From positions 1-64,000 of the forward strand of contig JAHQWH010000224.1 of NCBI GenBank assembly GCA_029856105.1: DNA of 64,000 bases, written 5' to 3'. How positions within the stretch are numbered: position 1 is the stretch's first letter; every line of letters begins with the position of its first letter. Source of the DNA: Promethearchaeia archaeon. GTDB taxonomy: Archaea > Asgardarchaeota > Lokiarchaeia > Sigyniarchaeales > SOKP01. Positions 6,700 through 28,749 of this stretch are shown here, one piece after another. The notes under the pieces are model-generated. The model did not search any database, was not told where the DNA came from, and worked only from the letters and a program-made list of their open reading frames with translations. A program made the position numbers and the translations under genes.

Positions 6700-6951
6700 T
6701 TAAAATATTTTTTGGATTCCCATTATTTCAGATTCTAATAAATATATTAAGGTTTCTATATATTGTCTATTAAATGAGTCTTTCTCACGAATAGTATTAT
6801 ACGCATTTAAATATTCATTTAATTGTGTTTCTTTTTCAATTATCTCCGCTTCAAAGTAACCTCGAGCAAATTCAGATATAAATTCTCTTTTAGAAGATAA
6901 AACGATTTTTTCTCCAAAACTATTTACTTCATTAACCAAACTTATCACCAT
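6700..6951 (-). CDS. Small helical-hairpin protein, paralogous to the central helical insert of 11259..11876
   Basis: ATG at 6951 behind AAGGTG SD; 19 of 52 aligned residues identical (counted by eye) to the middle of the 11259 protein. Confidence 0.7.
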   Translation of the reverse strand: MVISLVNEVNSFGEKIVLSSKREFISEFARGYFEAEIIEKETQLNEYLNAYNTIREKDSFNRQYIETLIYLLESEIMGIQKIF

Positions 6952-6992
6952 TATGTACACCTTTTAATTTTTATATAATTTTTTTATAACTT

Positions 6993-7072
6993 CTAATTAA
7001 ATAACCTTAAGCGATAAATTTAAAGAATTTGATAAGAAAAATTTTTGATAAATTGATAATTTTATTTTTCAA
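6993..7072 (-). promoter_or_regulatory. Promoter/operator copy A, with TATA-like box and TTGATAA-N6-TTTTCAA near-palindrome at 7053-7072
   Basis: 7021-7060 matches 11951-11990 at 34 of 40 positions; same position relative to the downstream gene. Confidence 0.65.
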
Positions 7073-9437: not shown

Positions 9438-10451
9438 TTACATTTTATATAACAATTTTTTAGCAACTTCGAACGCATAGTTATAATCAAATACCTTTGT
9501 ACCTTTAGTTTTTGTTGCTTCTTTTAAGATTTCTCCCTCTGAATTTGCTTTTAAACGACCTAATGCTAATGCTCCGATTCCAAATATTCCTGGATAAATT
9601 TCTTTATTATCGTGTTTTGGTCTTATTCCTTCAATTCCATAAGGGGGAACTAAATTGATATCTACTACAATTTTCTTACCTTCTAACCTTTCCATTAGAT
9701 CGCTTGACAAAATTTCAACACCAGCAGCAGCTAGAGACCAGATAATAAGCGCATCTTTAGCAACATCATATCTTTGTTCATTTTCAGGAGCAAAAATCCC
9801 TTTAATCTCGGTCGCATTCTCCCCCGCTTCTTCGGTTACTTCTTTAGCAAGGTTTTTAATAAATTCTTCGTTCGATTTATCCCAAGTTTCAACTAAAAAT
9901 GTATTCATCCCTTCTTTTGCTGCTAATATGGCAGCAATTCTGGCAACTGGACCCGCCCCATAGATGACGACTTTTTCTCCTTTTAAATCCCTAATTTTAT
10001 GTATATTTTTAGCATCGTATAAAGTCTTAGCTACAACTGCAGAAGCAGTAGTATGAGAACCCCTTGGATCTATTATTACGGGACATTCAAATGGAGGTAC
10101 TAAGGATTCAATAACTTTCTTAGCAATTTTTTCCCCTTCCTTTACATTAGACCCCCCAATAAAAAACGTTGTACGTGCTTTAGGTTTACGCGAAAATATA
10201 GCATCCTGGACAAGTTTAGGAACTTGATCCGCCGTCATTCTACTTATTGGAACAACAATATCAAAACCAGCGTCGTAAGCCATGTTAATGTCAAACGGAG
10301 AAGCGTTATCATCCGTGTCAAAAAAATAGCAAATCTTATCTGAGGAATCCTTTTTCTTTATTTTAATTGGCGTCAATTCTATTATTGATTTTTTACCAAG
10401 AATACTTTCTATTTTATTTCCAATTTCATTATTTTGAGTAATTTTTCTCAT
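9438..10451 (-). CDS. mtdB: NAD(P)-dependent methylene-H4MPT dehydrogenase, MtdA/MtdB-like
   Basis: SPFDINMAYDAG, LVQDAIFSR, FIGG, DPRGSHTTASA, GAGPV Rossmann motif, DINLVPPYGIEG, GIGALALG.LK. Confidence 0.85.
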   Translation of the reverse strand: MRKITQNNEIGNKIESILGKKSIIELTPIKIKKKDSSDKICYFFDTDDNASPFDINMAYDAGFDIVVPISRMTADQVPKLVQDAIFSRKPKARTTFFIGGSNVKEGEKIAKKVIESLVPPFECPVIIDPRGSHTTASAVVAKTLYDAKNIHKIRDLKGEKVVIYGAGPVARIAAILAAKEGMNTFLVETWDKSNEEFIKNLAKEVTEEAGENATEIKGIFAPENEQRYDVAKDALIIWSLAAAGVEILSSDLMERLEGKKIVVDINLVPPYGIEGIRPKHDNKEIYPGIFGIGALALGRLKANSEGEILKEATKTKGTKVFDYNYAFEVAKKLLYKM

Positions 10452-10504
10452 CTCACATCGTTAATTAAATTATAAAATTTAAAAAAATTATAACTAAAAA
10501 AAAA

Positions 10505-11236
10505 TTATTTAGATATCTCAACTTCTACTTCTTCTTCATACTCTTTTTCGATTTCTGCGGTTTTAATAGTTCTTTTGATTTTAATCTGTTCTGTATCGAT
10601 GCCTAAATCGTTTGCTAACTTATCTAGGCCTTCAAAGTGCCTTAAATCGCAAATGAATAACCCTTTTAATTTTTTCCCATTAATCTCCTTTGCAAGATTT
10701 AAAGTATTCATCATCATCCAAGCTTCTCTAACTTTATATCGAATTTCATCTTCTTGTGAGTCATAATCATTTTTGAGATATTCCTTCCATAAAACTAATT
10801 GTTGGAAGAGTTCATCCTCGGAAGGAACACCACCATTTTCTGTAATTATCTCTTTGATTCGCTCTTCAAGTGTTTGTAGCATATTTCTGTGTTCATCCAA
10901 TGCGGCAGAAAGATAAAATTCCGCATTTTCAGAGATATCAGCATGTTTAAATCGAATTCCTTTCTTTTTGAATAAGTTTTTTAGAGGATCGTTAGGGTTT
11001 AACGGGTTATCCCAAAAATTAGGTTTTTCTTCTAAAGCAAAATCAGGTGAATATTTGTCTATTAAACCATCGATGAGCTGAAGATATTCTTTACTAATAA
11101 GATGTAAAGACCATAGCAAATCCTCCTTTTTTTCTTTAGGAACTTCGAACCACCAATCTATTGGAAACTCACTTTCTACCATGATAAGCTTTAGATGCTT
11201 ATTTTTTAATGGTTTTAATTCTAATACTTCTGGCAT
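10505..11236 (-). CDS. Uncharacterised protein, possibly TraB/GumN(Tiki)-like fold; paralog of the adjacent gene
   Basis: PDFALEE, REAWM and LFICDLRHFEGL...L...G pattern resembles the TraB/GumN C-terminus; shares EVLELKP.KNK N-terminus with its neighbour; GGAGTG SD. Confidence 0.6.
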   Translation of the reverse strand: MPEVLELKPLKNKHLKLIMVESEFPIDWWFEVPKEKKEDLLWSLHLISKEYLQLIDGLIDKYSPDFALEEKPNFWDNPLNPNDPLKNLFKKKGIRFKHADISENAEFYLSAALDEHRNMLQTLEERIKEIITENGGVPSEDELFQQLVLWKEYLKNDYDSQEDEIRYKVREAWMMMNTLNLAKEINGKKLKGLFICDLRHFEGLDKLANDLGIDTEQIKIKRTIKTAEIEKEYEEEVEVEISK

Positions 11237-11258
11237 ATTTTCTCACTCCTTTTTTTAA

Positions 11259-11876
11259 TTAAAATATAACATTTTGAATTGTATGTTTTTTAGTATATGA
11301 AATTACTTTTACTCCCAAATCTCTTAAATCTGTTACGACTTGAGGGCAAATATCCTCGCAAATATCCTCTTGAACAAAATGAACAAAAGAAACTACTTCA
11401 TTTTCAAAACGATTTGCAAAATCTAACATTTTTTTTACGATCCACTGTGGTCTTAGCTTTAAGCTTAAAAAAATCTCTTTTTCTTGAATTTCTTCGCTTA
11501 ACATGTCAATCCAATTTTTTAGACTTTGTCCTTTGAAAGATTCTTTATCACTCATATTCTCGTATTCTTCAAATAATTCATTTTGAAGTTCTTGTTTTTC
11601 AACAATTTCTTCGTAAAGGTATCCCATTGCATAATCTGGAATATCTACCTGAATATATGGTATTCCAAGTTTATCTAATGTTTGAGCAAAAGGTGTTTTT
11701 TTAAACTCCTTCATATTTACTTGAAAATCAACGGTAACAAAATTAACATCTTTCTTTTTAAGAAAATCAGTTAGTCTTGATTTATCTTTATTTTGAAAAT
11801 ACCTGCCATTTTCTTTTGAGGACATATACGCTATTATTTTTTTATTTTTTACTGGTTTCAATTCCAAAACTTCCAT
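11259..11876 (-). CDS. Uncharacterised protein, degenerate paralog of 10505..11236
   Basis: ATG at 11876 behind GAGGTG SD; MEVLELKPVKNK N-terminus; collinear RPQWI versus REAWM. Confidence 0.7.
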   Translation of the reverse strand: MEVLELKPVKNKKIIAYMSSKENGRYFQNKDKSRLTDFLKKKDVNFVTVDFQVNMKEFKKTPFAQTLDKLGIPYIQVDIPDYAMGYLYEEIVEKQELQNELFEEYENMSDKESFKGQSLKNWIDMLSEEIQEKEIFLSLKLRPQWIVKKMLDFANRFENEVVSFVHFVQEDICEDICPQVVTDLRDLGVKVISYTKKHTIQNVIF

Positions 11877-11922: not shown

Positions 11923-12002
11923 CTAATTAAATTGTCATAAGCTTAAAATATAAAGAATTTGACAAGAAAACTTTTTAACATATTGATAAGGAATATTATC
12001 AA
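11923..12002 (-). promoter_or_regulatory. Promoter/operator copy B, with TTTATATT TATA box on the minus strand and perfect TTGATAA-N6-TTATCAA inverted repeat at 11983-12002
   Basis: Perfect 7-6-7 inverted repeat in the divergent intergenic region; conserved with 6993-7072. Confidence 0.7.
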
Positions 12003-12197
12003 AATTTTTTCTAAACAATTTTTTTAGTTAATTGAAAACCGTCATTCTTATTGATGGGATCCGTGGGTCACATGATCATTTTCTAACATATTTATATATT
12101 TTAACAACATATGTTATCATGAAGAAAAAATAATTTGTCAAAAAAAAGTTTTTAGCAAAATAAATTTAGAATAAAAAATCAATAGGAAAGCTCAAAA

Positions 12198-14744
12198 ATG
12201 GATATTTATTCAATTTTAGCCCATCCAATCAGAAGAAAACTCTTATATCTTCTCGAAGAAGAGGGTTTTATTCCATATACTGAATTAATGGTTAAGTTAG
12301 GTGTAGAACAAACTGGACAATTAAATTTTCATTTGAAAAAGCTTAATAATTTAGTAAGTAAAGACAAAAAATCATATTATTTAACTGATGATGGTAAAAG
12401 AGTATTAAGGATATTAGGATTAAACAAAAGAATTTTATCCGGAGAGGAAATAGACTATTTAAAATCAAAAGGTAGCGAAATAAACAGAATAGGTGTTATT
12501 ATCTGTAATTGTAATACAGAAATCTCAAATGTACTTAACATTAACTCCTTAGAAAACTATATAAGTAAAATAAATAATGTAGTTTCAGTAAAAATTCTTG
12601 ATAATTTATGTCAAGAAAAGAACCAAGATAAAATTAATAATTGGATTACTGATAACTTCATAAATAAAATTGTTATCGCTGCTTGTTCTCCTAAAACACA
12701 TCAACATATATTTGAACGTCTTTTTCAAAATATAATTGATAATGCAAATATTGAGATTGCAAATATAAGAGAACAATGTTGTTGGGTACACTATTCAAGT
12801 AAAAAACACATTGATAGTCTTTTAACTCTGAAAAAAGCACAATTACTTATAGAAGCCTCAGTTAATCGAGTAAGCCTTCAAAAACCAATTAAGATAAAAA
12901 GAGTTGAAGTTGAAAAAAGTTGTGCTGTTCTTGGAGGAGGAATTGCTGGTATGAATATAGCGTTAAACTTATCAAGGGCAGGTATCAAAGTTTATCTAAT
13001 TGAAAAGTCTCCTACGTTAGGGGGAAAAGTAGCAAGATGGCAAAAGATTTCAAATATGGGAGATTGCTCTACTTGCTTAATCTCTGAATTAATTGGGGAA
13101 ATTGTGAAAGAAAATAATATTGAAATCTTGACAAATTCGGAAATAATTAGCGTATCGGGAGAAGTTGGTAATTTTACTATAAACTTAATTAAAAAACCTC
13201 GCTATGTTGATGAGACAAAATGTACAGGTTGTAAGCAATGTGTGGATGTGTGTGCTCGAGAGAAAGTTAATCTATATGAATTTGGCTTAACGCATAGAAA
13301 AATAATTCACTTTCCTTTTCAATACTGTTATCCTTATGTCCCAGTTATTGAAGATGAAGATATTAATACCTGCCTTGAATGTGGAGTATGTGAACGTGCT
13401 TGTGCAAATAAAGCAATTAATTTAAGAGAAAAGCCTAAGGAATTGAGAATTAAAGTAGGCGCAAAAGTTATAGCTATTGGTTCAGATCTTTCTTCAAATT
13501 TAAAAGAATATAATTATAATCCACGAAATAATGTTATAACTTCGGCAGAATTTGAACGAATTTTATGTTCAGATGGCCTAACTAATGGAAAGATCGTAAA
13601 ATTGCCTGATGGGAAACCAGTGAAAACAATATCAATTATTCAAGAAGTTGGAATTTCAAACTATCTATGTGAATATTCGGATATTTTAGCCCTAAAGTAT
13701 ATAGATGTTATTAAAGTAAAGAGCCCTGATTGTGAAGTTAATGTTTTTTACGATTTAAGTAAACTAAAAGAAAAAGACGAAATAATACTAAAATCTACTC
13801 ATCCAAGATTTCTTTACGCTAATAAAGTATTAATTGAGACAAAAGAGAATATTAATTACGTAGTTGCGGATTCTATTGAGTTTCAGAGTGATTTGATCGT
13901 TTTAAATCTTAAATTAATTCCAAATAAGGATTTGAAAACTCTTAGAAAGATTATGGACTTCACTTTAAATGATTATGGTTTTATGAGTGAAGAAACTTTA
14001 GCTTCTGGTATTTATGGTGTTGGAACAATATTTGGACCATTAAATTATCACTCAACTATTGCAACCACTAATAACATAGCGTTAAAAGTAATATCACTTC
14101 TTTCAAACGATTATTTAATAACAGAATATACTGGAATAGAGATTAATGAAGACAAATGTGGATTGTGTAACCTCTGTGTTATTTCTTGTCCTTACAATGC
14201 AATAAGCATAAACTTCGAAAAAATTACTGTTGATAAGTTTAAATGTAAAGCTTGTGGTATGTGTGTTAGTGTTTGTCCTACTAATGCCATCGAAATGAAT
14301 ATAAATACATCAGAAAAGATTTTAAAAACGATCGAAATTTTCTCAAAATTCAATAAAAAACCAAAAATTATCGCTTTTTGTTGCCAATCTTGCGGTTACG
14401 CTGCCGCTGACAATGCAGGATTAAAGAAATTGTTATATCAGCCTAATGTTTTTATAATCTCTGTTCCTTGTACTGGCCGTATTGATACTGAATTCATTGT
14501 TAAATCTCTTGAAATGGGGTTTGATGGAGTTATGATTATTGGTTGCAGAAAGGATTCTTGTAGATATATTGACGGGATTGAAAAATTAAAAAAAAGAGTT
14601 AGGCTTTTAAAAAAGGTTCTAGGACCAAAGTTAAGCAGACGGATAATAGTGATGAGTTTAAACGGAGTAGAAGGACAGGTATTTGCTGAAATCTCTAATA
14701 AATTCTATAATTTATTAAAGGAGGAGATTAAAAGTGAGGCTTAA
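12198..14744 (+). CDS. hdrA: Fusion: ArsR-like winged-helix DNA-binding domain + degenerate heterodisulfide reductase subunit A-like FAD/FeS protein + MvhD [2Fe-2S] domain
   Basis: aa 1-75 wHTH (LAHPIRRKLL...LNFHLKKL...YYLTDDG); HdrA motifs CNC, AACSP, REQCCWVH, GGGIAGM, DCSTC, EFER; two ferredoxin pairs; MvhD motifs FCCQSCGYAAAD, PCTGRI, GC...SCRY. Confidence 0.9.
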   Translation: MDIYSILAHPIRRKLLYLLEEEGFIPYTELMVKLGVEQTGQLNFHLKKLNNLVSKDKKSYYLTDDGKRVLRILGLNKRILSGEEIDYLKSKGSEINRIGVIICNCNTEISNVLNINSLENYISKINNVVSVKILDNLCQEKNQDKINNWITDNFINKIVIAACSPKTHQHIFERLFQNIIDNANIEIANIREQCCWVHYSSKKHIDSLLTLKKAQLLIEASVNRVSLQKPIKIKRVEVEKSCAVLGGGIAGMNIALNLSRAGIKVYLIEKSPTLGGKVARWQKISNMGDCSTCLISELIGEIVKENNIEILTNSEIISVSGEVGNFTINLIKKPRYVDETKCTGCKQCVDVCAREKVNLYEFGLTHRKIIHFPFQYCYPYVPVIEDEDINTCLECGVCERACANKAINLREKPKELRIKVGAKVIAIGSDLSSNLKEYNYNPRNNVITSAEFERILCSDGLTNGKIVKLPDGKPVKTISIIQEVGISNYLCEYSDILALKYIDVIKVKSPDCEVNVFYDLSKLKEKDEIILKSTHPRFLYANKVLIETKENINYVVADSIEFQSDLIVLNLKLIPNKDLKTLRKIMDFTLNDYGFMSEETLASGIYGVGTIFGPLNYHSTIATTNNIALKVISLLSNDYLITEYTGIEINEDKCGLCNLCVISCPYNAISINFEKITVDKFKCKACGMCVSVCPTNAIEMNINTSEKILKTIEIFSKFNKKPKIIAFCCQSCGYAAADNAGLKKLLYQPNVFIISVPCTGRIDTEFIVKSLEMGFDGVMIIGCRKDSCRYIDGIEKLKKRVRLLKKVLGPKLSRRIIVMSLNGVEGQVFAEISNKFYNLLKEEIKSEA

Positions 14745-15498
14745 ATTTTTAATTACATCTTTAACGTCTTGTACTGGATGTATATCAGCATTGATATCAC
14801 TAGATATATTTCCACAATTTCTTGAAAGAACGAAAATCGAATATTTTCCATTTATATCTGACAATTTAGAGATTAATGAATGCGATATAGCGCTAGTGGA
14901 GGGGGCTGTGTCCGAAAAGAATCAAATCGAATATCTACAAGAAATACGAAAAAATGCAAAAAAACTATATGCATTAGGTACATGCTCAGCGTTTGGGGGG
15001 ATTCTTAGTCTCTCAAATAAAAAAGAATCGTATCCTATTTCAAAGTTTGTGGAAGTTGATGGTATTATACCTGGATGTCCCCCTCCATCCATACTTTTAG
15101 GAAATTGTTTATTGAGGTTAGTTGAGAACAAAAAAATCCAGCTAAGCTTTAAAAATATGTGTTCTACTTGTCCTTTAAACAACCACGCAAAATTAGATTT
15201 ACCATTAACAATAGAAAAGTTTGTTCCAAGAAACGATGAAATTCGTTTTCCGGAAGAAAATTTATCGTGTTTTTTGAACGATGGGATTTTATGTTTAGGT
15301 CCTATTACTCGAGATGGCTGCGATCATCTCTGTATAAAACAAGGTTTACCCTGTGAAGGATGTTTAGGGCCTGTTTCAAAGGGGTTTACGTCGAATTTAA
15401 TCAATTTCTTAAGTCTTTTTAACCTTTCTAAAGATTTAAGAAAATACAAGGGGATATACCATAGGTTCTCAAAACCACATGTAGGAGGGAAGGATTGA
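14734..15498 (+). CDS. mvhG: [NiFe]-hydrogenase small subunit, MvhG-like (group 3c)
   Basis: SCTGC, EGAV, GTCSAFGG, IPGCPP, CSTC, CFL..G.LCLGP.TR.GC..LC...G.PCEGC; overlaps both neighbours. Confidence 0.9.
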   Translation: MRLKFLITSLTSCTGCISALISLDIFPQFLERTKIEYFPFISDNLEINECDIALVEGAVSEKNQIEYLQEIRKNAKKLYALGTCSAFGGILSLSNKKESYPISKFVEVDGIIPGCPPPSILLGNCLLRLVENKKIQLSFKNMCSTCPLNNHAKLDLPLTIEKFVPRNDEIRFPEENLSCFLNDGILCLGPITRDGCDHLCIKQGLPCEGCLGPVSKGFTSNLINFLSLFNLSKDLRKYKGIYHRFSKPHVGGKD

Positions 15499-16799
15499 TG
15501 GATAAAGTTGTAGAAGCATGCACAAGGGTTGAAGGTAGTGGAAACTTAAACATTTATTTAAAAAACGATGAAATTTATCGAACTGAATTGAACTTTTCAG
15601 TATTTAGAGGATTTGAAAATATTTTAATAGGCAAAAAGCTATTAGATATTCCAAAAATAGTATCTAGAATTTGTGGACTGTGCTCCGCATCTCAAACAAT
15701 TGCAAGTTGCAAAGCAATAGAGAATATATACGGAATAGAACCATCAAACCAATCAATTTTGCTTAGAAGGGTTTTATTATCTGGAGAATTAATACAATCG
15801 CACATTATGCATTATTTTTTCCAATCCTTTCCAGATTTATTAAAAATATTTAAAATTAATACTATAATTAACGAACCTTATAATTTAATTAATTACAATC
15901 CTCATTTAACGACAAATGTATTTAATTTAATAAAAATTGGCTCAGAAATAAATAAGTTAATAGGAGGGAGGGTGTTACATCCAATTACTCCGATTCCTGG
16001 AGGATTAATATATAATCCGAATCGAAAGAGTTTTATTTCTATGGAGAAATATCTTCAAAAGGGAATTTACTACATAGAAACTATAATTGAAAATTTTATA
16101 GATTTATTTTCTGCTTTTGATCCTCCTACAGAATTTAATCTTTCTAATCCTATATATTTCGGCTTAAAAAACAATATGGGTTTTGATAGGTATGAAGGAA
16201 ACCTTAGAATTGAACAAAATGAAACAACTTACAACGATTTTCAAGCGAAAAATTATTCAAAATATTTTGATAAAGACCCTAATCTTTATGGGATTACGTT
16301 TAAGTCAAATTCGAAAAATGAAATTTTAACAGGACCAATTGCGCGCTATAAGTTAACTCAAAATTATGGAATAGATAAAATATACGAATACTTAAGCAAT
16401 TTTGGAAAAAAATGGCAAAGCAATTTATTATTTATAAACTTTTTACAATTAATTGAAAGTTATTACGAAATTCAAAAAAGTGTTGAAATATTAAATACTA
16501 CTTCACTAAAAAGTAAAACAAAACTTAAACAACTAAACTCAATAAAAAAATCAAATGGAATAGGGGTTATCGAAGCACCAAGAGGTATACTAATGCATCA
16601 TTATCATTTAAATAAAGCTAAATCCGTTGATCAAGTAAAACTTTTCATTGCAACCGAAATAAATATGCCTATTCTTAACAAAATGATCACTGAATATGCT
16701 AAAAAGCTATATGAAAAAGAAGATATCGATTCTGTTAAAGAAAAAGTTCAAATAATGATAAGAGCATTTGATCCTTGCATATCGTGCGCTTCTCACTAA
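15495..16799 (+). CDS. mvhA: [NiFe]-hydrogenase large subunit, MvhA-like, with sensory-type signatures
   Basis: TRVEG, RGFE, RICGLC, EAPRG..HHY, RAFDPCISCASH followed directly by a stop codon. Confidence 0.92.
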   Translation: MMDKVVEACTRVEGSGNLNIYLKNDEIYRTELNFSVFRGFENILIGKKLLDIPKIVSRICGLCSASQTIASCKAIENIYGIEPSNQSILLRRVLLSGELIQSHIMHYFFQSFPDLLKIFKINTIINEPYNLINYNPHLTTNVFNLIKIGSEINKLIGGRVLHPITPIPGGLIYNPNRKSFISMEKYLQKGIYYIETIIENFIDLFSAFDPPTEFNLSNPIYFGLKNNMGFDRYEGNLRIEQNETTYNDFQAKNYSKYFDKDPNLYGITFKSNSKNEILTGPIARYKLTQNYGIDKIYEYLSNFGKKWQSNLLFINFLQLIESYYEIQKSVEILNTTSLKSKTKLKQLNSIKKSNGIGVIEAPRGILMHHYHLNKAKSVDQVKLFIATEINMPILNKMITEYAKKLYEKEDIDSVKEKVQIMIRAFDPCISCASH

Positions 16800-16857: not shown

Positions 16858-17898
16858 TTGAAAGAAAATCTCTTAAATAACGCCAATACAGATTGTCCAT
16901 TTAAGGAATTATGTGAGACTCTTTTGTTTTATTTTGATGAGACTATAGGCCATGTCCCACTTCTTATTTGTCCAGAAAATGCGTTAGATGATGATTCGGG
17001 AAAAATGCATCTTATAAGATACCATCCAATTTGGTTTTTAGAGCTCAAAGATAAAACTACAATTAACCGAATCGATTTAGAATACTGTAATAATATGTAT
17101 TTTGCGAAGAAATTTATTGTTGAATCTAAAAGGGTTAAAAGAAGAGCAGGGTCTTTTCAAAAAATGGATGAAATAGTTGTGTTGATACTTGTGTTGCCAA
17201 CAGATTTAGATGTTTTTGGGGGAGAATTAATAAATTTATTAACGAAAAAAATAATCGATGAATTTGAAAATACGCTTTATCACGTAATAGAATCAGAAAT
17301 TGCGAAACTGGAAGTTATTAAAACAGAAAAATTAATTAATATAATAAAAAAAGGAGATCAGATAAAAGAAGAAATAAAAGCAATAATTAACCTTACTTGT
17401 GAGGAACATTTTTCATCGGTAATTAAACAAACTGATGCGACCTCTTTCAAATTGCAAAAAGCAATTTCTTATTTAACATTTAAAGGAATCGATATTGACC
17501 ACATTGTTATAGACGCTCAAAATGAATCGTTTTCTAAAATTCGATTATTCGATTACGATAGAGTTGTTCAACAAAAATTAGGAATAAAAGATCAATTTAA
17601 AATAACAAACATAAATATTATTAACAATTTTCAGGAAATAGAAGTTTTAGTAAAGAATAAAAGTAAAAAGGAATTCAACGATCTCATCGTCCGAATTACT
17701 TACATTAAAGAATTTTTTGAAAAAGAGGTATTAAACGAAAAAGTTGAAAAATGCCTTCCTGAAGAAGAATTATTGTTTATAACGCCCGTAATTAAAGAAA
17801 CAAACAATTATTTGTTTTCTATTATTGAAGAACATTCTAATAGAACAATTTTTTCTAAAAAAATTGATTTAGAATCAGTTAAAAGTCGTCCCTACTAA
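16858..17898 (+). CDS. Uncharacterised protein with N-terminal longin/uDENN-like domain and C-terminal beta-sandwich
   Basis: LFYFDETIGHVP..ICP pattern resembles the FD...GP start of uDENN/longin domains; fold is an inference. Confidence 0.5.
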   Translation: MKENLLNNANTDCPFKELCETLLFYFDETIGHVPLLICPENALDDDSGKMHLIRYHPIWFLELKDKTTINRIDLEYCNNMYFAKKFIVESKRVKRRAGSFQKMDEIVVLILVLPTDLDVFGGELINLLTKKIIDEFENTLYHVIESEIAKLEVIKTEKLINIIKKGDQIKEEIKAIINLTCEEHFSSVIKQTDATSFKLQKAISYLTFKGIDIDHIVIDAQNESFSKIRLFDYDRVVQQKLGIKDQFKITNINIINNFQEIEVLVKNKSKKEFNDLIVRITYIKEFFEKEVLNEKVEKCLPEEELLFITPVIKETNNYLFSIIEEHSNRTIFSKKIDLESVKSRPY

Positions 17899-18832
17899 GG
17901 AATTTTTTTAAATTTTGGTAATCTTCGCCATTTAAAACGTTCATTACCGTATCAAAAGTTCCAATTGTTTTCTCTTTTGTAACAACCATCAGTACCGATC
18001 CATTGCTAACTTCCTTCACTAGAATATAGTTATGTTCGCTCTCATATATAACAGTTGATAATTCTAAAGGAGAAATCGAAGAATTTGAAAGTTCCATGAT
18101 CTTTGAAAAAATTTGATAAATATTAGAGTCTAAGCTACCAATCTCGAATTTGATAAATTGGAGATTTGGACTTTCAAATTTTCCTATTGTGGAAGCTATT
18201 AATAAACCATCTGGTTGGTTAAATAAAAGAAATTCTGAAAGCGTATTGATCTTCAATTGGTCTAATAAATGGCGTATTTTCCCAAGCCTTTGTAAAGCTA
18301 ATGTGTTCTCTTGAATTTTATAATCGAGTATTTCGATCAATCGATGTTGAGCACTTCCCTCTTTTACTGATACAGGTGTAAAAGCAATTTTGCTTTTTAA
18401 ATCATCTGTAAGATCTTTAATTAACAGTTTATAAATGTCATCTTCTTTTGATTCTTGAAGATCAATTTTATTTAATAAGACATATACCTTTCCCACTTCA
18501 GGACTAAATTCAAAAAGGTATTTCAAGAATTTACCAAAAGTATCTTTCAGTTTTGGTTCTTCTGCTGCCGAATCAACCATGAAAACTGCAGCTGTTACAT
18601 CAGAAAATACAAGCTCTCGCTTTTTTTCTGAGAAATATCTTTCCATATAAAGTTCCTGACCCCCTAAATCCCAGATGGAAAGTTCCATTATTCCTCTAAA
18701 TATAAAATTTTCCCTTGAGACTCCTTTTGTAGGTTTCAGATTAAGCACTTTCATGAAATTATAACCTAAACAAGTAGTCCGCATTAATGACGTTTTACCC
18801 GCACCACCAGGGCCAAATAGGAGTATTTTTAT
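17879..18832 (-). CDS. RagA/Gtr1-like small GTPase with C-terminal roadblock domain
   Basis: Frame extends upstream of the tracked ATG to include the P-loop KILLFGPGGAGKTSLM; WDLGGQELYMERYF (G3), NKID (G4); roadblock-like C-terminus (NQPDGLLIAST); probable ATA start at 18832. Confidence 0.85.
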   Translation of the reverse strand: MKILLFGPGGAGKTSLMRTTCLGYNFMKVLNLKPTKGVSRENFIFRGIMELSIWDLGGQELYMERYFSEKKRELVFSDVTAAVFMVDSAAEEPKLKDTFGKFLKYLFEFSPEVGKVYVLLNKIDLQESKEDDIYKLLIKDLTDDLKSKIAFTPVSVKEGSAQHRLIEILDYKIQENTLALQRLGKIRHLLDQLKINTLSEFLLFNQPDGLLIASTIGKFESPNLQFIKFEIGSLDSNIYQIFSKIMELSNSSISPLELSTVIYESEHNYILVKEVSNGSVLMVVTKEKTIGTFDTVMNVLNGEDYQNLKKFLSRDDF

Positions 18833-25093: not shown

Positions 25094-27100
25094 TTAAAAA
25101 AAATTTAGAAAATTTAGCAAATCTTCATATAAAGAAGTATTTTTTTTCATTCCCTTGATGTAAGGTCGATCTTTTGTATATTGTAAAAGAGCTGGAGACA
25201 TTTTATTATATTCAAACCTATATCCTTCTTTATGTGTGAAGCCAATACAATGAATGTCGTAGTTCAAATTTTTATTAATATATGTTAAACACGAGTTTAA
25301 TAAATTAGCATAACAAAAAAATTGAGGTATTGATTGAAGAATCTCTGATTTATTTTGTTTATAATCGAAAATAAGAATACAATTATCTACAATTCCTAAA
25401 AAATCAATATGACCTGTTTGAAAAACGAGTTTTTCTTTCCCATTAATAATGTTTTTTCCTAAAAATTTCCACACCGGAACTTCAACAGCCACGATATAAT
25501 CAAAACATTGTAAAAATTGACTTTGTATAGGATAATGATATGGAATCTGAGAATACTTTTCTATATAAGATTGGTAAATTTTATCTGCATACAAAATGAT
25601 TTTAGAGGATTTTTGTAATTTTGTTAAAACTTGTTTAGATATAAAATAGTGTTCTATTTCGTCTACATTCGCTCTAAACTGAGGTGTTCCGATTAGTTTT
25701 AAATTAGATGCACGAAGGTCAGGATCAATAAAAGCTTCGAAAGGATAATTAAAATTTTTAATGCTTATTAAAAAAGATTTTATAACCTCTGCAATCTCTC
25801 CATTATCATGCAAATTTTCGAATCTATAATTAAAACTAATGGATTTAGCGGTTTTAACTAACGATGGTTTTACATATAAATGATGTTTTTCTAATATATG
25901 TAGAATCTCATAATAATCATAATCACGAATCTCTGTGGTTTCACAAAGAATTATAGTTGAAAAGCGTTCATGTGTAAACATGTAAAATATTGTTTTTATA
26001 TACTTATTAATGAGACTTTTTTGTGTTTCAGATAATTTATCAAGATCCAAAACAGGCATGACTTCAATAATAATAGAATCTACGGTATAATTGTCTAATA
26101 CCATTCTATTTAGCTCTTTTGCGATAATGAGGATTATGGAAGATTTAAAATCACTCCATTGGTTAGTTGGAATGCCTGTTAAACCTAATTTATTTTTAAT
26201 ATTTTTAAAAATTCCTATGGAAACATCATACTCTTCAGCAAGAGCTAAAGCTGACATATAAGGATTTGTCAGCATAAGAAAACGTGCTCTAATATAGGTT
26301 TCAGCAAGAATTCTCTGTGTTTTGGATAAATTGTCAAGATCCAAAATAGGCGTGACTTCAATAACAATAGAATCTACGGTAAAATCGTCTAATTTTAAGG
26401 AAGTTAACTTAATTTCAATATCTTGAATGATAGCATCTCTAATAGGGGGAAAATCTTTAGTTCTAATACCTGTTAAATCCAAAGTATTCTTTATGATTTT
26501 GAAATTGTCTATAGAAATATTATATTCTTCAGCAAGAGCTAAAGCTGATATATTAGGATTTGCCAGCATAAGAAAACATGCTCTAATATAGGTTTCAGCA
26601 AGAATTCTCTGTGTTTTGGATAAATTGTCAAGATCTAAAATAGGCGTGACTTCAATAACAATAGAATCTACGGTAAAATCGTCTAAATTCAAGATTGTTA
26701 AATTATTTTCGATGTCCAGAATAATAGCATCTCTAATAAGGGGAAATTCTTCAGAAGGTATTCCCGTTAAATTTAAAGCGCTTCTAACCTTTTTAAAAAC
26801 CGATCTGGGAATATTATATTTTTCAACTAGACCTCTAACAGACGTACTGCTTTCTGTAATTAAATAAAATGTCGCTTGAATGTATGTAATAACATACTCT
26901 CTTTGGGTTTTAGACAATCTATTCAGATTTAAATCTGACAAGACTTTTTTAATTATACTATTGCTCGTAAAAATTTTCAAATCTAAATTATTCATTTTAT
27001 TGTATAGATCACGAATAACATCGTCCCTAAAAATTGTCCATTCTGTATTTGATATAAATACATTTTTATCATTATTTTTTAACATATTGAAACTACCCAT
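25094..27100 (-). CDS. Protein with four tandem 98-aa HTH-like repeats fused to a C-terminal PD-(D/E)XK (RecB/Cas4-like) nuclease
   Basis: C-terminal AVEVPVW...TGHIDFL.......IFDYK...Q...YA motif; repeats visible in both protein and DNA. Confidence 0.8.
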   Translation of the reverse strand: MGSFNMLKNNDKNVFISNTEWTIFRDDVIRDLYNKMNNLDLKIFTSNSIIKKVLSDLNLNRLSKTQREYVITYIQATFYLITESSTSVRGLVEKYNIPRSVFKKVRSALNLTGIPSEEFPLIRDAIILDIENNLTILNLDDFTVDSIVIEVTPILDLDNLSKTQRILAETYIRACFLMLANPNISALALAEEYNISIDNFKIIKNTLDLTGIRTKDFPPIRDAIIQDIEIKLTSLKLDDFTVDSIVIEVTPILDLDNLSKTQRILAETYIRARFLMLTNPYMSALALAEEYDVSIGIFKNIKNKLGLTGIPTNQWSDFKSSIILIIAKELNRMVLDNYTVDSIIIEVMPVLDLDKLSETQKSLINKYIKTIFYMFTHERFSTIILCETTEIRDYDYYEILHILEKHHLYVKPSLVKTAKSISFNYRFENLHDNGEIAEVIKSFLISIKNFNYPFEAFIDPDLRASNLKLIGTPQFRANVDEIEHYFISKQVLTKLQKSSKIILYADKIYQSYIEKYSQIPYHYPIQSQFLQCFDYIVAVEVPVWKFLGKNIINGKEKLVFQTGHIDFLGIVDNCILIFDYKQNKSEILQSIPQFFCYANLLNSCLTYINKNLNYDIHCIGFTHKEGYRFEYNKMSPALLQYTKDRPYIKGMKKNTSLYEDLLNFLNFF
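25865..27040 (-). repeat. Intragenic tandem repeat, 294-bp period, four copies (middle two most alike)
   Basis: caagat(c/t).aaa.aggc.tgacttcaata starts at 26041, 26335 and 26629; the outer copies are more diverged. Confidence 0.9.
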
Positions 27101-27291
27101 TTTATTAATTTTTTTTCGAATCGAATTTTAAAAATTTATAGCAAAATTTTGAGGGATTTCTCACTTAATAGTTAGAACCAAACTTAATTAAATCATATAG
27201 AGTTAAGATTTATCTTGAAAGAAATTATAAAAAGTAATATTAGGGATCAGAATTAAATTTAATTCCTTATTATTTTTCTCCAAAATATAAA

Positions 27292-28749
27292 TTACATATA
27301 AAATCTATACTGTTTAGGTAAATTTTGAATTTTTCTTGCTCTTGCTTCTGCTAAAATTATTCCAACTCTATGAGATACTTTTAATGTGATTGGAAATTTA
27401 CTACAAAATTCAGCATTATTCCAGTCCAATTTAGAAAAAGCCATAATTTCAGTTAATAATTGTTCATAAGTCGAATCACAGTCATGCAATTTGACGTAAA
27501 GGGGCGTAGGTACTTGGGAGCCAGGGTATGTGTTTAAAGCTGGGATAAAACCAGAAGTATAAAGAAAATGTTCATTGTTCGAAACTGATATTACCGTTCC
27601 TCTTACAACAGGATACTGATCATCAGTATAGAATCTAACACCTTTTCTTAATATACAAATAAAATTCTTATCTGAAATAGTTTTTGCACCTTCATTAAAT
27701 CCCTTTAATTCTTCTTTATTAAATTCAGTGGATTTATGTATCACTATTCTCTGAGGTTCTTGCCCCATGTGGTTCTTATACTCATTCACGATTTCCATCA
27801 TCAATGCAGAAGCATGATCTTCATCGAGATGAGGATTTCGATCTTGATTATAATCCCATGGAAATGGTTGTCCACGTAAAACATAACTCTGTCCTGTATG
27901 TAAAAATATCTGTGCCATACTTACACCCATCTCTCCCCCTTGTTCAATATTATCTGGATAAAACCCTACTCCTGCATAACATGTTCCTGGGTATAAATCA
28001 ATTACTTTCCAAGGGATTCCTGTAGCTTTATAATAGAGCCCGACTGAAAAATTCCAAGCAACCATCGATGGATCTTGCGTTTCGCCTTCTTCTTGAGTCC
28101 AAGTTCTTTCGGTGACTAATTGAGTTGGTTTTTGGTATTTTAAACCAATGGTTTTGATTATATTATGAAAGTCTAGATCTCCACCACTCATTTGAGCAGC
28201 TAGAATGGATTTATCGCTGAAAGTTCTTTTAGCAAATTTCACAATATGTGTTTTCATACGTTGTTTTTGAAAATGACCTAATTCCTCATTCATTACTGCT
28301 AGTAGTATGATATGAGGAGGTGGTTCTCTAACAATCATAGCATCCATTTTTTTTTCAAAAAGATTAATGTATTCTTGTCCTTTTTCAACTCGGGAAAGTT
28401 TTTGAAGACAAGCATCAAATTCTTTTTTAGTAATAATATCTTCCCAAGTTTTTGATAGAGAAATTTTACAATTAATTTTTGAAATTTGAGAAAGACCAGG
28501 AAAAAGGGTTAAATAATCCTTATCTTTATCAATTGGATAAATCTTATTTGAGAGATTGTAAAGAAAAGGTTTAATTCCATTGATAGAATTAACAGTTCCA
28601 ATAAGTCCCACTCGGATGGGTAAGTATTCTGCTTCTTTATTAATATCTGGTCCACAAGGGCCGTATTTTATTAGTCCAATACATGGATTAACATCTCTAC
28701 GCCCCCTCGAAAATATTAATTCTGGTTCACTGATTCTCCATACTCTCAT
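27292..28749 (-). CDS. ago: Short prokaryotic Argonaute (MID-PIWI), catalytically inactive
   Basis: EPELIF, DFHNIIK..PTQ, AWNFSVGLYYKA.GIPW, RIVIHK, RGT, LYTSG..P...TYPG..VP.P, KLDWN, PIT, C-terminal YRFYM; tetrad Asp positions replaced (CYAGVGF, IHKS). Confidence 0.93.
   Translation of the reverse strand: MRVWRISEPELIFSRGRRDVNPCIGLIKYGPCGPDINKEAEYLPIRVGLIGTVNSINGIKPFLYNLSNKIYPIDKDKDYLTLFPGLSQISKINCKISLSKTWEDIITKKEFDACLQKLSRVEKGQEYINLFEKKMDAMIVREPPPHIILLAVMNEELGHFQKQRMKTHIVKFAKRTFSDKSILAAQMSGGDLDFHNIIKTIGLKYQKPTQLVTERTWTQEEGETQDPSMVAWNFSVGLYYKATGIPWKVIDLYPGTCYAGVGFYPDNIEQGGEMGVSMAQIFLHTGQSYVLRGQPFPWDYNQDRNPHLDEDHASALMMEIVNEYKNHMGQEPQRIVIHKSTEFNKEELKGFNEGAKTISDKNFICILRKGVRFYTDDQYPVVRGTVISVSNNEHFLYTSGFIPALNTYPGSQVPTPLYVKLHDCDSTYEQLLTEIMAFSKLDWNNAEFCSKFPITLKVSHRVGIILAEARARKIQNLPKQYRFYM

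Follow-up and report, generated by a model that had tools for sequence, protein, structure and literature searches.

Sequence comparisons make it fairly probable that a three-gene operon of a Promethearchaeia archaeon (assembly GCA_029856105.1) encodes a H2/redox-responsive, DNA-binding hydrogenase–flavoprotein complex that controls transcription, in which a group 3 [NiFe]-hydrogenase large subunit is the H2-reacting input. A more specific model, a kinase-free form of archaeal H2 sensing in which H2-driven reduction moves the HdrA arm and makes a fused wHTH domain bind or release its operator, the sensor-like glutamine of the large subunit being a late addition, is tentative and in our estimate falls just short of an even chance. 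The bacterial H2-sensing hydrogenases known so far signal through kinases or cyclases, and to our knowledge no H2-sensing [NiFe]-hydrogenase has been characterised in archaea. Literature searches returned no published description of the system. The window referred to below is the whole 64-kb stretch analysed, positions 1–64,000 of contig JAHQWH010000224.1.

Results

Active Site and Termini of the Large Subunit

The large subunit is encoded on the forward strand at 15498–16799 (433 aa from ATG 15498; 434 aa from TTG 15495). The ATG is the likely start codon, since it overlaps the stop codon of the small-subunit gene (TGATG) and yields a protein matching the 433-aa homologues; residues are nonetheless numbered here, unless stated, according to the 434-aa translation from TTG 15495. 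The four cysteines, the RxEG glutamate, the PRG arginine, the terminal histidine, and the fold of group 3 [NiFe] large subunits are all present. Pfam, NCBIfam, PDB, and Foldseek concur in this assignment, with the protein falling below every subgroup cut-off (best NCBIfam match ShyA, 178.7 bits against a cut-off of 700; VhuA, 162.9 against 800) and superimposing on 5XF9_D and 5ODC_F with a TM of 0.87 at 24% identity (Foldseek). As the preliminary description had noted, the Ni/Fe cysteines (Cys60/63/428/431) and the APRG arginine (Arg363) are kept, as are Glu13, Glu41, Thr387, Asp426, and His434.

The first motif reads RICGLCSASQ, in which a glutamine encoded by CAA at 15693–15695 (forward strand) replaces the histidine that follows the first cysteine pair. 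Translation and DNA agree on this residue, and a direct check of HoxC of Cupriavidus necator (RVCGICSVSQ, Gln67, tail-less) bears out the parallel drawn earlier; Afipia HoxC also has glutamine in the same column. The residue is number 66 under ATG 15498, and its numerical match to HoxC Gln67 requires the TTG start. The protein ends DPCISCASH, followed by TAA at 16797–16799 and a second in-frame TAA two codons on, so that the reported lack of a C-terminal extension is real and a hidden tail reached through Sec read-through, a frameshift, a split gene, or a VhuU-like piece is ruled out. Chance or sequencing error is excluded as a source of either feature because the glutamine occurs in 119 of 120 close homologues and every complete one is tail-less.

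The gas-channel gate position corresponds to Leu122 in Sf Hyn and Phe110 in HoxC, and substitutions there alter the catalytic bias of other hydrogenases (PMC11023054). The gate comprises Leu62 and Gln110 in the window protein, in contrast to Ile62 and Phe110 in HoxC. Within the clade (n = 118), position 110 is Gln in 111 members and His in seven; elsewhere it is Phe in one more distant Asgard family (f21, the only relatives with Phe), Met in most members of another (f18) and in a Bathyarchaeia sequence (L049), and mostly Leu in others. Each lineage whose hydrogenase is linked to the wHTH–HdrA–MvhD fusion described below has altered its second-sphere residues in its own way.

Several further residues differ among the fusion-linked large subunits. 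Cys9, which arises together with the glutamine, is placed by the prediction where the two subunits meet, and Glu388, adjoining the CN-binding threonine, is common to most fusion-linked Asgard sequences. The terminal Mg-binding histidine is gone in f18 (L117–L121) and in the Bathyarchaeia member L049, and the arginine before the first cysteine has become lysine in f18, a separate active-site drift within the same system.

The Glutamine Is Lineage-Specific, and Tail Loss Is Not

The preliminary description treated the glutamine and the missing tail as two paired hallmarks of regulatory hydrogenases and added the change of RVEGH to RVEGS. Among 137 near-full-length group 3 representatives (50% clusters), the position after the first cysteine pair is His in 122, Gln in five, Tyr in three, and unparsed in seven. 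All five Gln representatives also have the Cys9 and Gln/Asn110 of the window protein's lineage, to which the glutamine is confined in this divergent set, and the three whose context is visible all have the wHTH–HdrA–MvhD fusion upstream. In these alignments and trees the glutamine is a specific, lineage-specific convergence with HoxC, gained once in Lokiarchaeia; it counts as convergent because the protein is placed in group 3, far from group 2b. The HoxC glutamine itself has been reported as one that “seems not to be involved in H2 sensing” (PMC5665086).

The second hallmark did not hold up. Tail loss was found in 27 His-type representatives of the 137, and the combination of histidine with no tail occurs in 30 Anaerolineae-type enzymes as well as in one ordinary 3b operon, hyhBGSL; the catalytic groups 4c and 4e likewise lack the tail (PMC7294309). 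Tail loss as a sensor marker is ruled out by its frequency in His-type group 3 relatives, an ordinary 3b operon included. Moreover, the two traits do not travel as one package within the fusion clade, which includes glutamine with a tail (L112, P0128, and P0133), histidine without one (P0123 and P0116), and histidine with a tail (families f18 and f21). The proposed co-occurrence with the fusion stands for the glutamine, since every Gln-type protein with visible context accompanies the fusion and the residue is not common among fusion-less group 3 enzymes, and fails for tail loss, which is common in ordinary relatives. One clade of tail-less, His-type group 3 enzymes from Anaerolineae and some Desulfobacterota (L051–L080) branches apart from both 3b and 3c/3d.

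Serine was correctly read at residue 15, but RVEGS is ruled out as a clade feature: His occupies the position in 103 of 121 homologues, and Ser, Arg, Cys, or Gln occur mostly in the window's own subclade. By this distribution His15Ser is local drift. Neither the missing tail nor the serine is evidence for sensing.

A Deep Group 3 Clade Linked to the Fusion

In the large-subunit tree, all fusion-linked members form one clade (support 100/97) that is sister to 3b (95/89) and outside 3c/3d, with subgroups labelled from operon context and no methanogen MvhA or group 3a row included. The phylogeny called for at the outset thus places the window protein on the group 3 side of a 100/100 branch, away from group 2b. 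In the small-subunit tree the fusion-linked members again form one clade (100), which lies near 3c at a weak support of 86 and not with 3b. The 3c scaffold proposed earlier therefore finds an echo in the small subunit, but nesting within 3c was not recovered in the large-subunit tree, where grouping with 3c/3d is not rejected by an AU test (p = 0.08). The lineage is best called a distinct deep group 3 clade on these trees. Appler et al. (bioRxiv 10.1101/2024.07.04.601786) defined novel Asgard subgroups 3e–3l from large-subunit trees; these are likewise new Asgard group 3 clades, and the present one, compared with them by description alone, may be among them. Their text mentions no sensor or wHTH link, sequences, operons, or functions.

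The tree orders the events as acquisition of the fusion (present in L049 and f18), loss of an HdrA cluster motif (f21 and Lokiarchaeia), gain of the glutamine, and loss of the tail, with a single origin of the glutamine together with Cys9 and Gln110 (100/99). By this ordering the wHTH–HdrA–MvhD fusion predates the glutamine and all other sensor-like changes of the large subunit.

The closest homologues and loci carry the names Promethearchaeota or Lokiarchaeota. The clade is present in about three quarters of the family genomes searched. In a further count the module was found in 47 of 71, and its absence from roughly one third is due in part to contig ends. Beyond this family the clade occurs in two other families of the class, in f21 and f18, which are Asgard families at a greater distance, and, as the distant member L049, on one Bathyarchaeia chromosome. 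Seven records labelled Hodarchaeota, Thorarchaeota, Hermodarchaeota, Odinarchaeota, or bacteria (L008, L015, L018, L020, L024, L004, and L037) are nested among Lokiarchaeia with the same synteny and are probably mislabelled.

Patchy presence in the family and a variable residue 15 in the window's subclade might be taken as signs of a decaying duplicate whose substitutions represent neutral loss of function. We regard this as highly improbable, given dN/dS well below 1 in all parts, reading frames that are intact across a class, and the near-fixation of the glutamine (119/120).

A wHTH–HdrA–MvhD Fusion as the Proposed Output Subunit

Domain searches and alignments identify the first gene of the operon (12198–14744, forward strand) as an 848-aa fusion of a wHTH domain (residues 1–75; DUF7347, ArsR-like), a flexible linker, HdrA, and MvhD. 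The wHTH matches DUF7347 with an E value of 2e-10 and, weakly, 1Y0U (0.03); linker residues 76–94 have low confidence in the predicted structure. It is followed by the small subunit (14734–15498, forward strand; 254 aa), which is translationally coupled on both sides and whose 14 cysteines are sufficient for three FeS clusters. Of the 47 clade loci, 38 show the complete gene order of fusion (~848 aa), small subunit, and large subunit; eight others are cut by contig ends, and in the exception, L038, the fusion is located elsewhere in the genome. Among 51 genomes searched for both, the fusion was seen only together with the hydrogenase, which is weak evidence of a link, the genes being adjacent. 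Apparent absences of the fusion in G099 and G350 fall at contig ends, and candidate substitute wHTH proteins in fusion-less genomes proved to be distant paralogues that the window's own genome carries too.

The two hydrogenase subunits are predicted to pair, scoring 0.93 against 0.00 for the best control, with at least 88% contact agreement between runs and a partner pLDDT of at least 83. Of 80 solved pairs 58 pass the mark used, as do two of 110 mismatched ones, and for such a textbook-like pair the score shows likeness only.

The HdrA portion, 30% identical to the HdrA of Mvh–Hdr, retains the FAD motif, the Cys290/293 pair, both ferredoxin pairs, and the MvhD part. A further cysteine motif, aligning with approximately residues 393–410 of 8RVU, persists in Bathyarchaeia and f18 but has disappeared from f21 and Lokiarchaeia. 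In the 5ODC structure the corresponding motif binds cluster HA4. In Mvh–Hdr, HA4 passes the high-potential electron to HdrB, and both the N-terminal and the C-terminal domain of HdrA move with a rotating arm (PMC12350162, PMC13580544). The conserved three-gene operon contains neither hdrBC nor a histidine kinase or response regulator, and the clade loci lack HyhB/HyhG diaphorase genes in the operon.

The wHTH shows dN/dS values of 0.08–0.17, among the lowest in the operon, and a near-invariant recognition helix, which place it under strong purifying selection; the large subunit, at 0.21–0.32 in the window's subclade, is the least constrained part. This imbalance also bears on a different kind of regulator, in which the FAD/FeS part reads ferredoxin, F420, the thiol pool, O2 stress, or nickel/maturation status, and the hydrogenase serves as a valve for slow resetting or to gauge cofactor loading. 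Such a regulator would fit a fusion that came before any sensor-like change of the large subunit, as well as the loss of the terminal histidine in f18 and Bathyarchaeia members. It is an improbable reading all the same, as the catalytic residues are invariant and the fusion was never found without the hydrogenase, weak as that count is for adjacent genes.

The only other large subunit encoded in the window's genome is a canonical split VhuA, accompanied by a Sec-containing VhuU beside hdrC and hdrB; HypD and a maturation protease are encoded as well. That locus (L168; G000:C19:16791-21141) reads small subunit, split VhuA, short VhuU with an in-frame TGA at a Cys position, hdrC, and hdrB, with hypD about 11 kb away.

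A Conserved Palindrome in the Promoters of the Operon and Its Neighbours

The palindrome WTGAYAA-N6-TTRTCAW occurs at three sites near the operon. The genome's best site (11983–12002) lies ~126 bp upstream of a divergent gene for an uncharacterised 205-aa protein (11259–11876, reverse strand), a probable target that accompanies the fusion and retains the palindrome even after relocation. The second site (12101–12120) is just downstream of a TATA-like box (12091–12098) of the fusion operon, a position that would suit a repressor, and the third (7053–7072) is ahead of a short ORF (6700–6960). Domain and locus comparison points to 9438–11236 (reverse strand) as a probable target operon, encoding an uncharacterised 243-aa paralogue and an MtdB-like methylene-H4MPT dehydrogenase, which in many relatives form a single 560-aa fusion protein.

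The two paralogous uncharacterised proteins at 10505–11876 belong to Atlas clusters found in Promethearchaeota only, with TraB/GumN as the nearest named family (0.81, a lead only). A 346-aa protein with no Pfam family (16858–17898) often follows the large subunit and here converges on a Rag/Gtr1-like GTPase (17879–18784). Farther on, 25094–28749 holds a 668-aa protein rich in repeats, with a nuclease-like motif at its C terminus, that adjoins an Argonaute-like 485-aa ORF.

The palindrome consensus, seeded by a previously noted inverted repeat at 11983–12002 and refined on the same 46 fusion-upstream regions used for the count, gave 53 sites in 31 of them, compared with 0.83 expected (maximum 4) in Markov controls. 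It is found in families f1, f3, and f21, is weak in f18, and was not seen in L049; the recognition helices of f18 and L049 differ. The divergent 205-aa gene is preceded by the palindrome in 28 of 29 fusion-positive genomes (partly training regions), and where genes have been inserted ahead of the fusion, the palindrome is found before them instead. Paired copies spaced 107–109 or ~168 bp apart occur in the other divergent promoters of the gene island, those of an HdrC-like/HdrA/MvhD/FrhB-like operon. These patterns make the wHTH fusion a candidate binder of the palindrome, although another regulator could own it.

In three loci of relatives (L391, L393, and L403) a larger island comprises an HdrC-like protein of 400–420 aa, an HdrA of 1037 aa, MvhD, an FrhB-like protein, and a split HdrA (~130 + 472 aa), with paired palindromes in each divergent promoter. 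At L160:1124-4676 (G000:C11), an NfnA-like gene is followed by a 912-aa FrhB–NfnB fusion, possibly an F420-linked Nfn transhydrogenase by its domain content; its promoter, with two palindrome sites, is shared with a second copy of a 205-aa-type gene and an MtdB-like fusion.

The supported regulon appears to be local. The top palindrome hits in the genome precede metVF, glyA, nfnA, ftr, and an H4MPT-linked gene (orf9), but a broad C1 regulon was rejected and the regulon looks small, because conservation is lacking for the sites at glyA and nfnA and the metV sites are not significantly tied to the fusion (p = 0.12–0.28). The latter occur in ~40% of genomes, 20 of 42 with and six of 23 without the fusion (p = 0.12); an association that looked significant in an early subset was gone in the full set. 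Counts of the exact pattern across whole genomes carried too much noise to tell fusion-positive from fusion-less genomes.

These observations allow another reading. The enzyme would be a catalytic oxidoreductase of the H2:ferredoxin or H2:F420 type that does not bifurcate and that, in a fermenter, probably evolves H2; its wHTH would be only autoregulatory, and the glutamine and the missing tail would adjust catalysis or make maturation simpler. The active-site and FeS ligands are all intact, many loci have an FrhB-like gene immediately ahead of the fusion, as would suit electron transfer, tail-less catalytic relatives exist (PMC7294309), gate changes shift catalytic bias elsewhere (PMC11023054), and a mostly local regulon is what autoregulation would leave. 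However, the genome already carries a canonical Vhu–Hdr, the high-potential exit has been lost without replacement in the core operon, the palindrome also marks the promoters of other operons, and the second-sphere residues have changed separately in each fusion-linked lineage. Such a catalytic, autoregulated enzyme is rather unlikely in our judgement.

Discussion

The case for a sensory complex does not depend mainly on the glutamine, and the missing tail is no part of it. It is built on a wHTH under purifying selection, the lost HA4-type motif of HdrA, a separate catalytic Vhu–Hdr, and the conserved palindrome. A working model for the H2/redox-responsive complex would begin with loading of the NiFe(CN)2(CO) site, whose ligands are present, by Hyp proteins and presumably without need of a protease, followed by the predicted pairing of large and small subunits. 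By analogy with Mvh–Hdr structures, electrons would then pass through the small-subunit clusters and the [2Fe–2S] cluster of MvhD to the HdrA cysteine pair and FAD. With the HA4-type exit to HdrBC lost and no hdrBC in the operon, they would be expected to accumulate there, and no heterodisulfide turnover would follow. The wHTH is attached to the HdrA N-terminal domain, a part of the “mobile arm” in solved complexes, such that redox-driven movement could alter the spacing of two wHTH heads on the palindrome. The complex might in this way regulate its own operon, the divergent 205-aa/MtdB-like operon, and the neighbouring HdrA/MvhD/FrhB-like operon, all of which have sites. The glutamine, the gate glutamine, and tail loss would represent late adjustments, specific to Lokiarchaeia, of a complex that was regulatory beforehand, probably to low turnover, rather than the origin of its function.

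The group 2b sensors HoxBC–HoxJ–HoxA of C. necator and HupUV–HupT–HupR share with the window protein the glutamine, the lack of a tail, a non-canonical gate, and a sensing role, here a proposed one, beside a separate catalytic enzyme. They are linked to a kinase and response regulator, whereas the window operon has neither and its proposed output is a DNA-binding domain carried on a flavoprotein. The group 3c MvhAGD–HdrABC complex (PDB 5ODC, 9SW2; HdrA2-type HdrA–MvhD fusion NF040770) has the same module order, folds, and MvhD. In contrast to it, the window system belongs to a separate clade, has an added N-terminal wHTH, has lost the HA4-type cysteine motif, lacks hdrBC in the operon and the tail, and has shorter subunits (433 and 254 aa versus ~470 and 300). 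The large subunit resembles in length those of group 3b Hyh/SHI (PDB 9NEZ, 5YXY), as does the short tail of early-branching clade members. Unlike 3b and 3d (HoxH, 5XF9), however, the system has no HyhB/HyhG or HoxFU diaphorase genes, and its small subunit falls outside 3b.

The clade offers a natural series, with histidine and a tail, glutamine and a tail, histidine without a tail, and glutamine without a tail, and with members that have or lack the HA4 cluster, in which the roles of the glutamine and of the maturation tail can be compared. Asgard genomes may have less H2 metabolism than is suggested when such genes are counted as catalytic 3b or 3c enzymes. Lokiarchaeia rely on H2 exchange with partners, a dependence central to syntrophy models of eukaryote origin. 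If the proposed function is correct, a direct switch from H2 or redox state to DNA would show how Lokiarchaeia read the activity of those partners.
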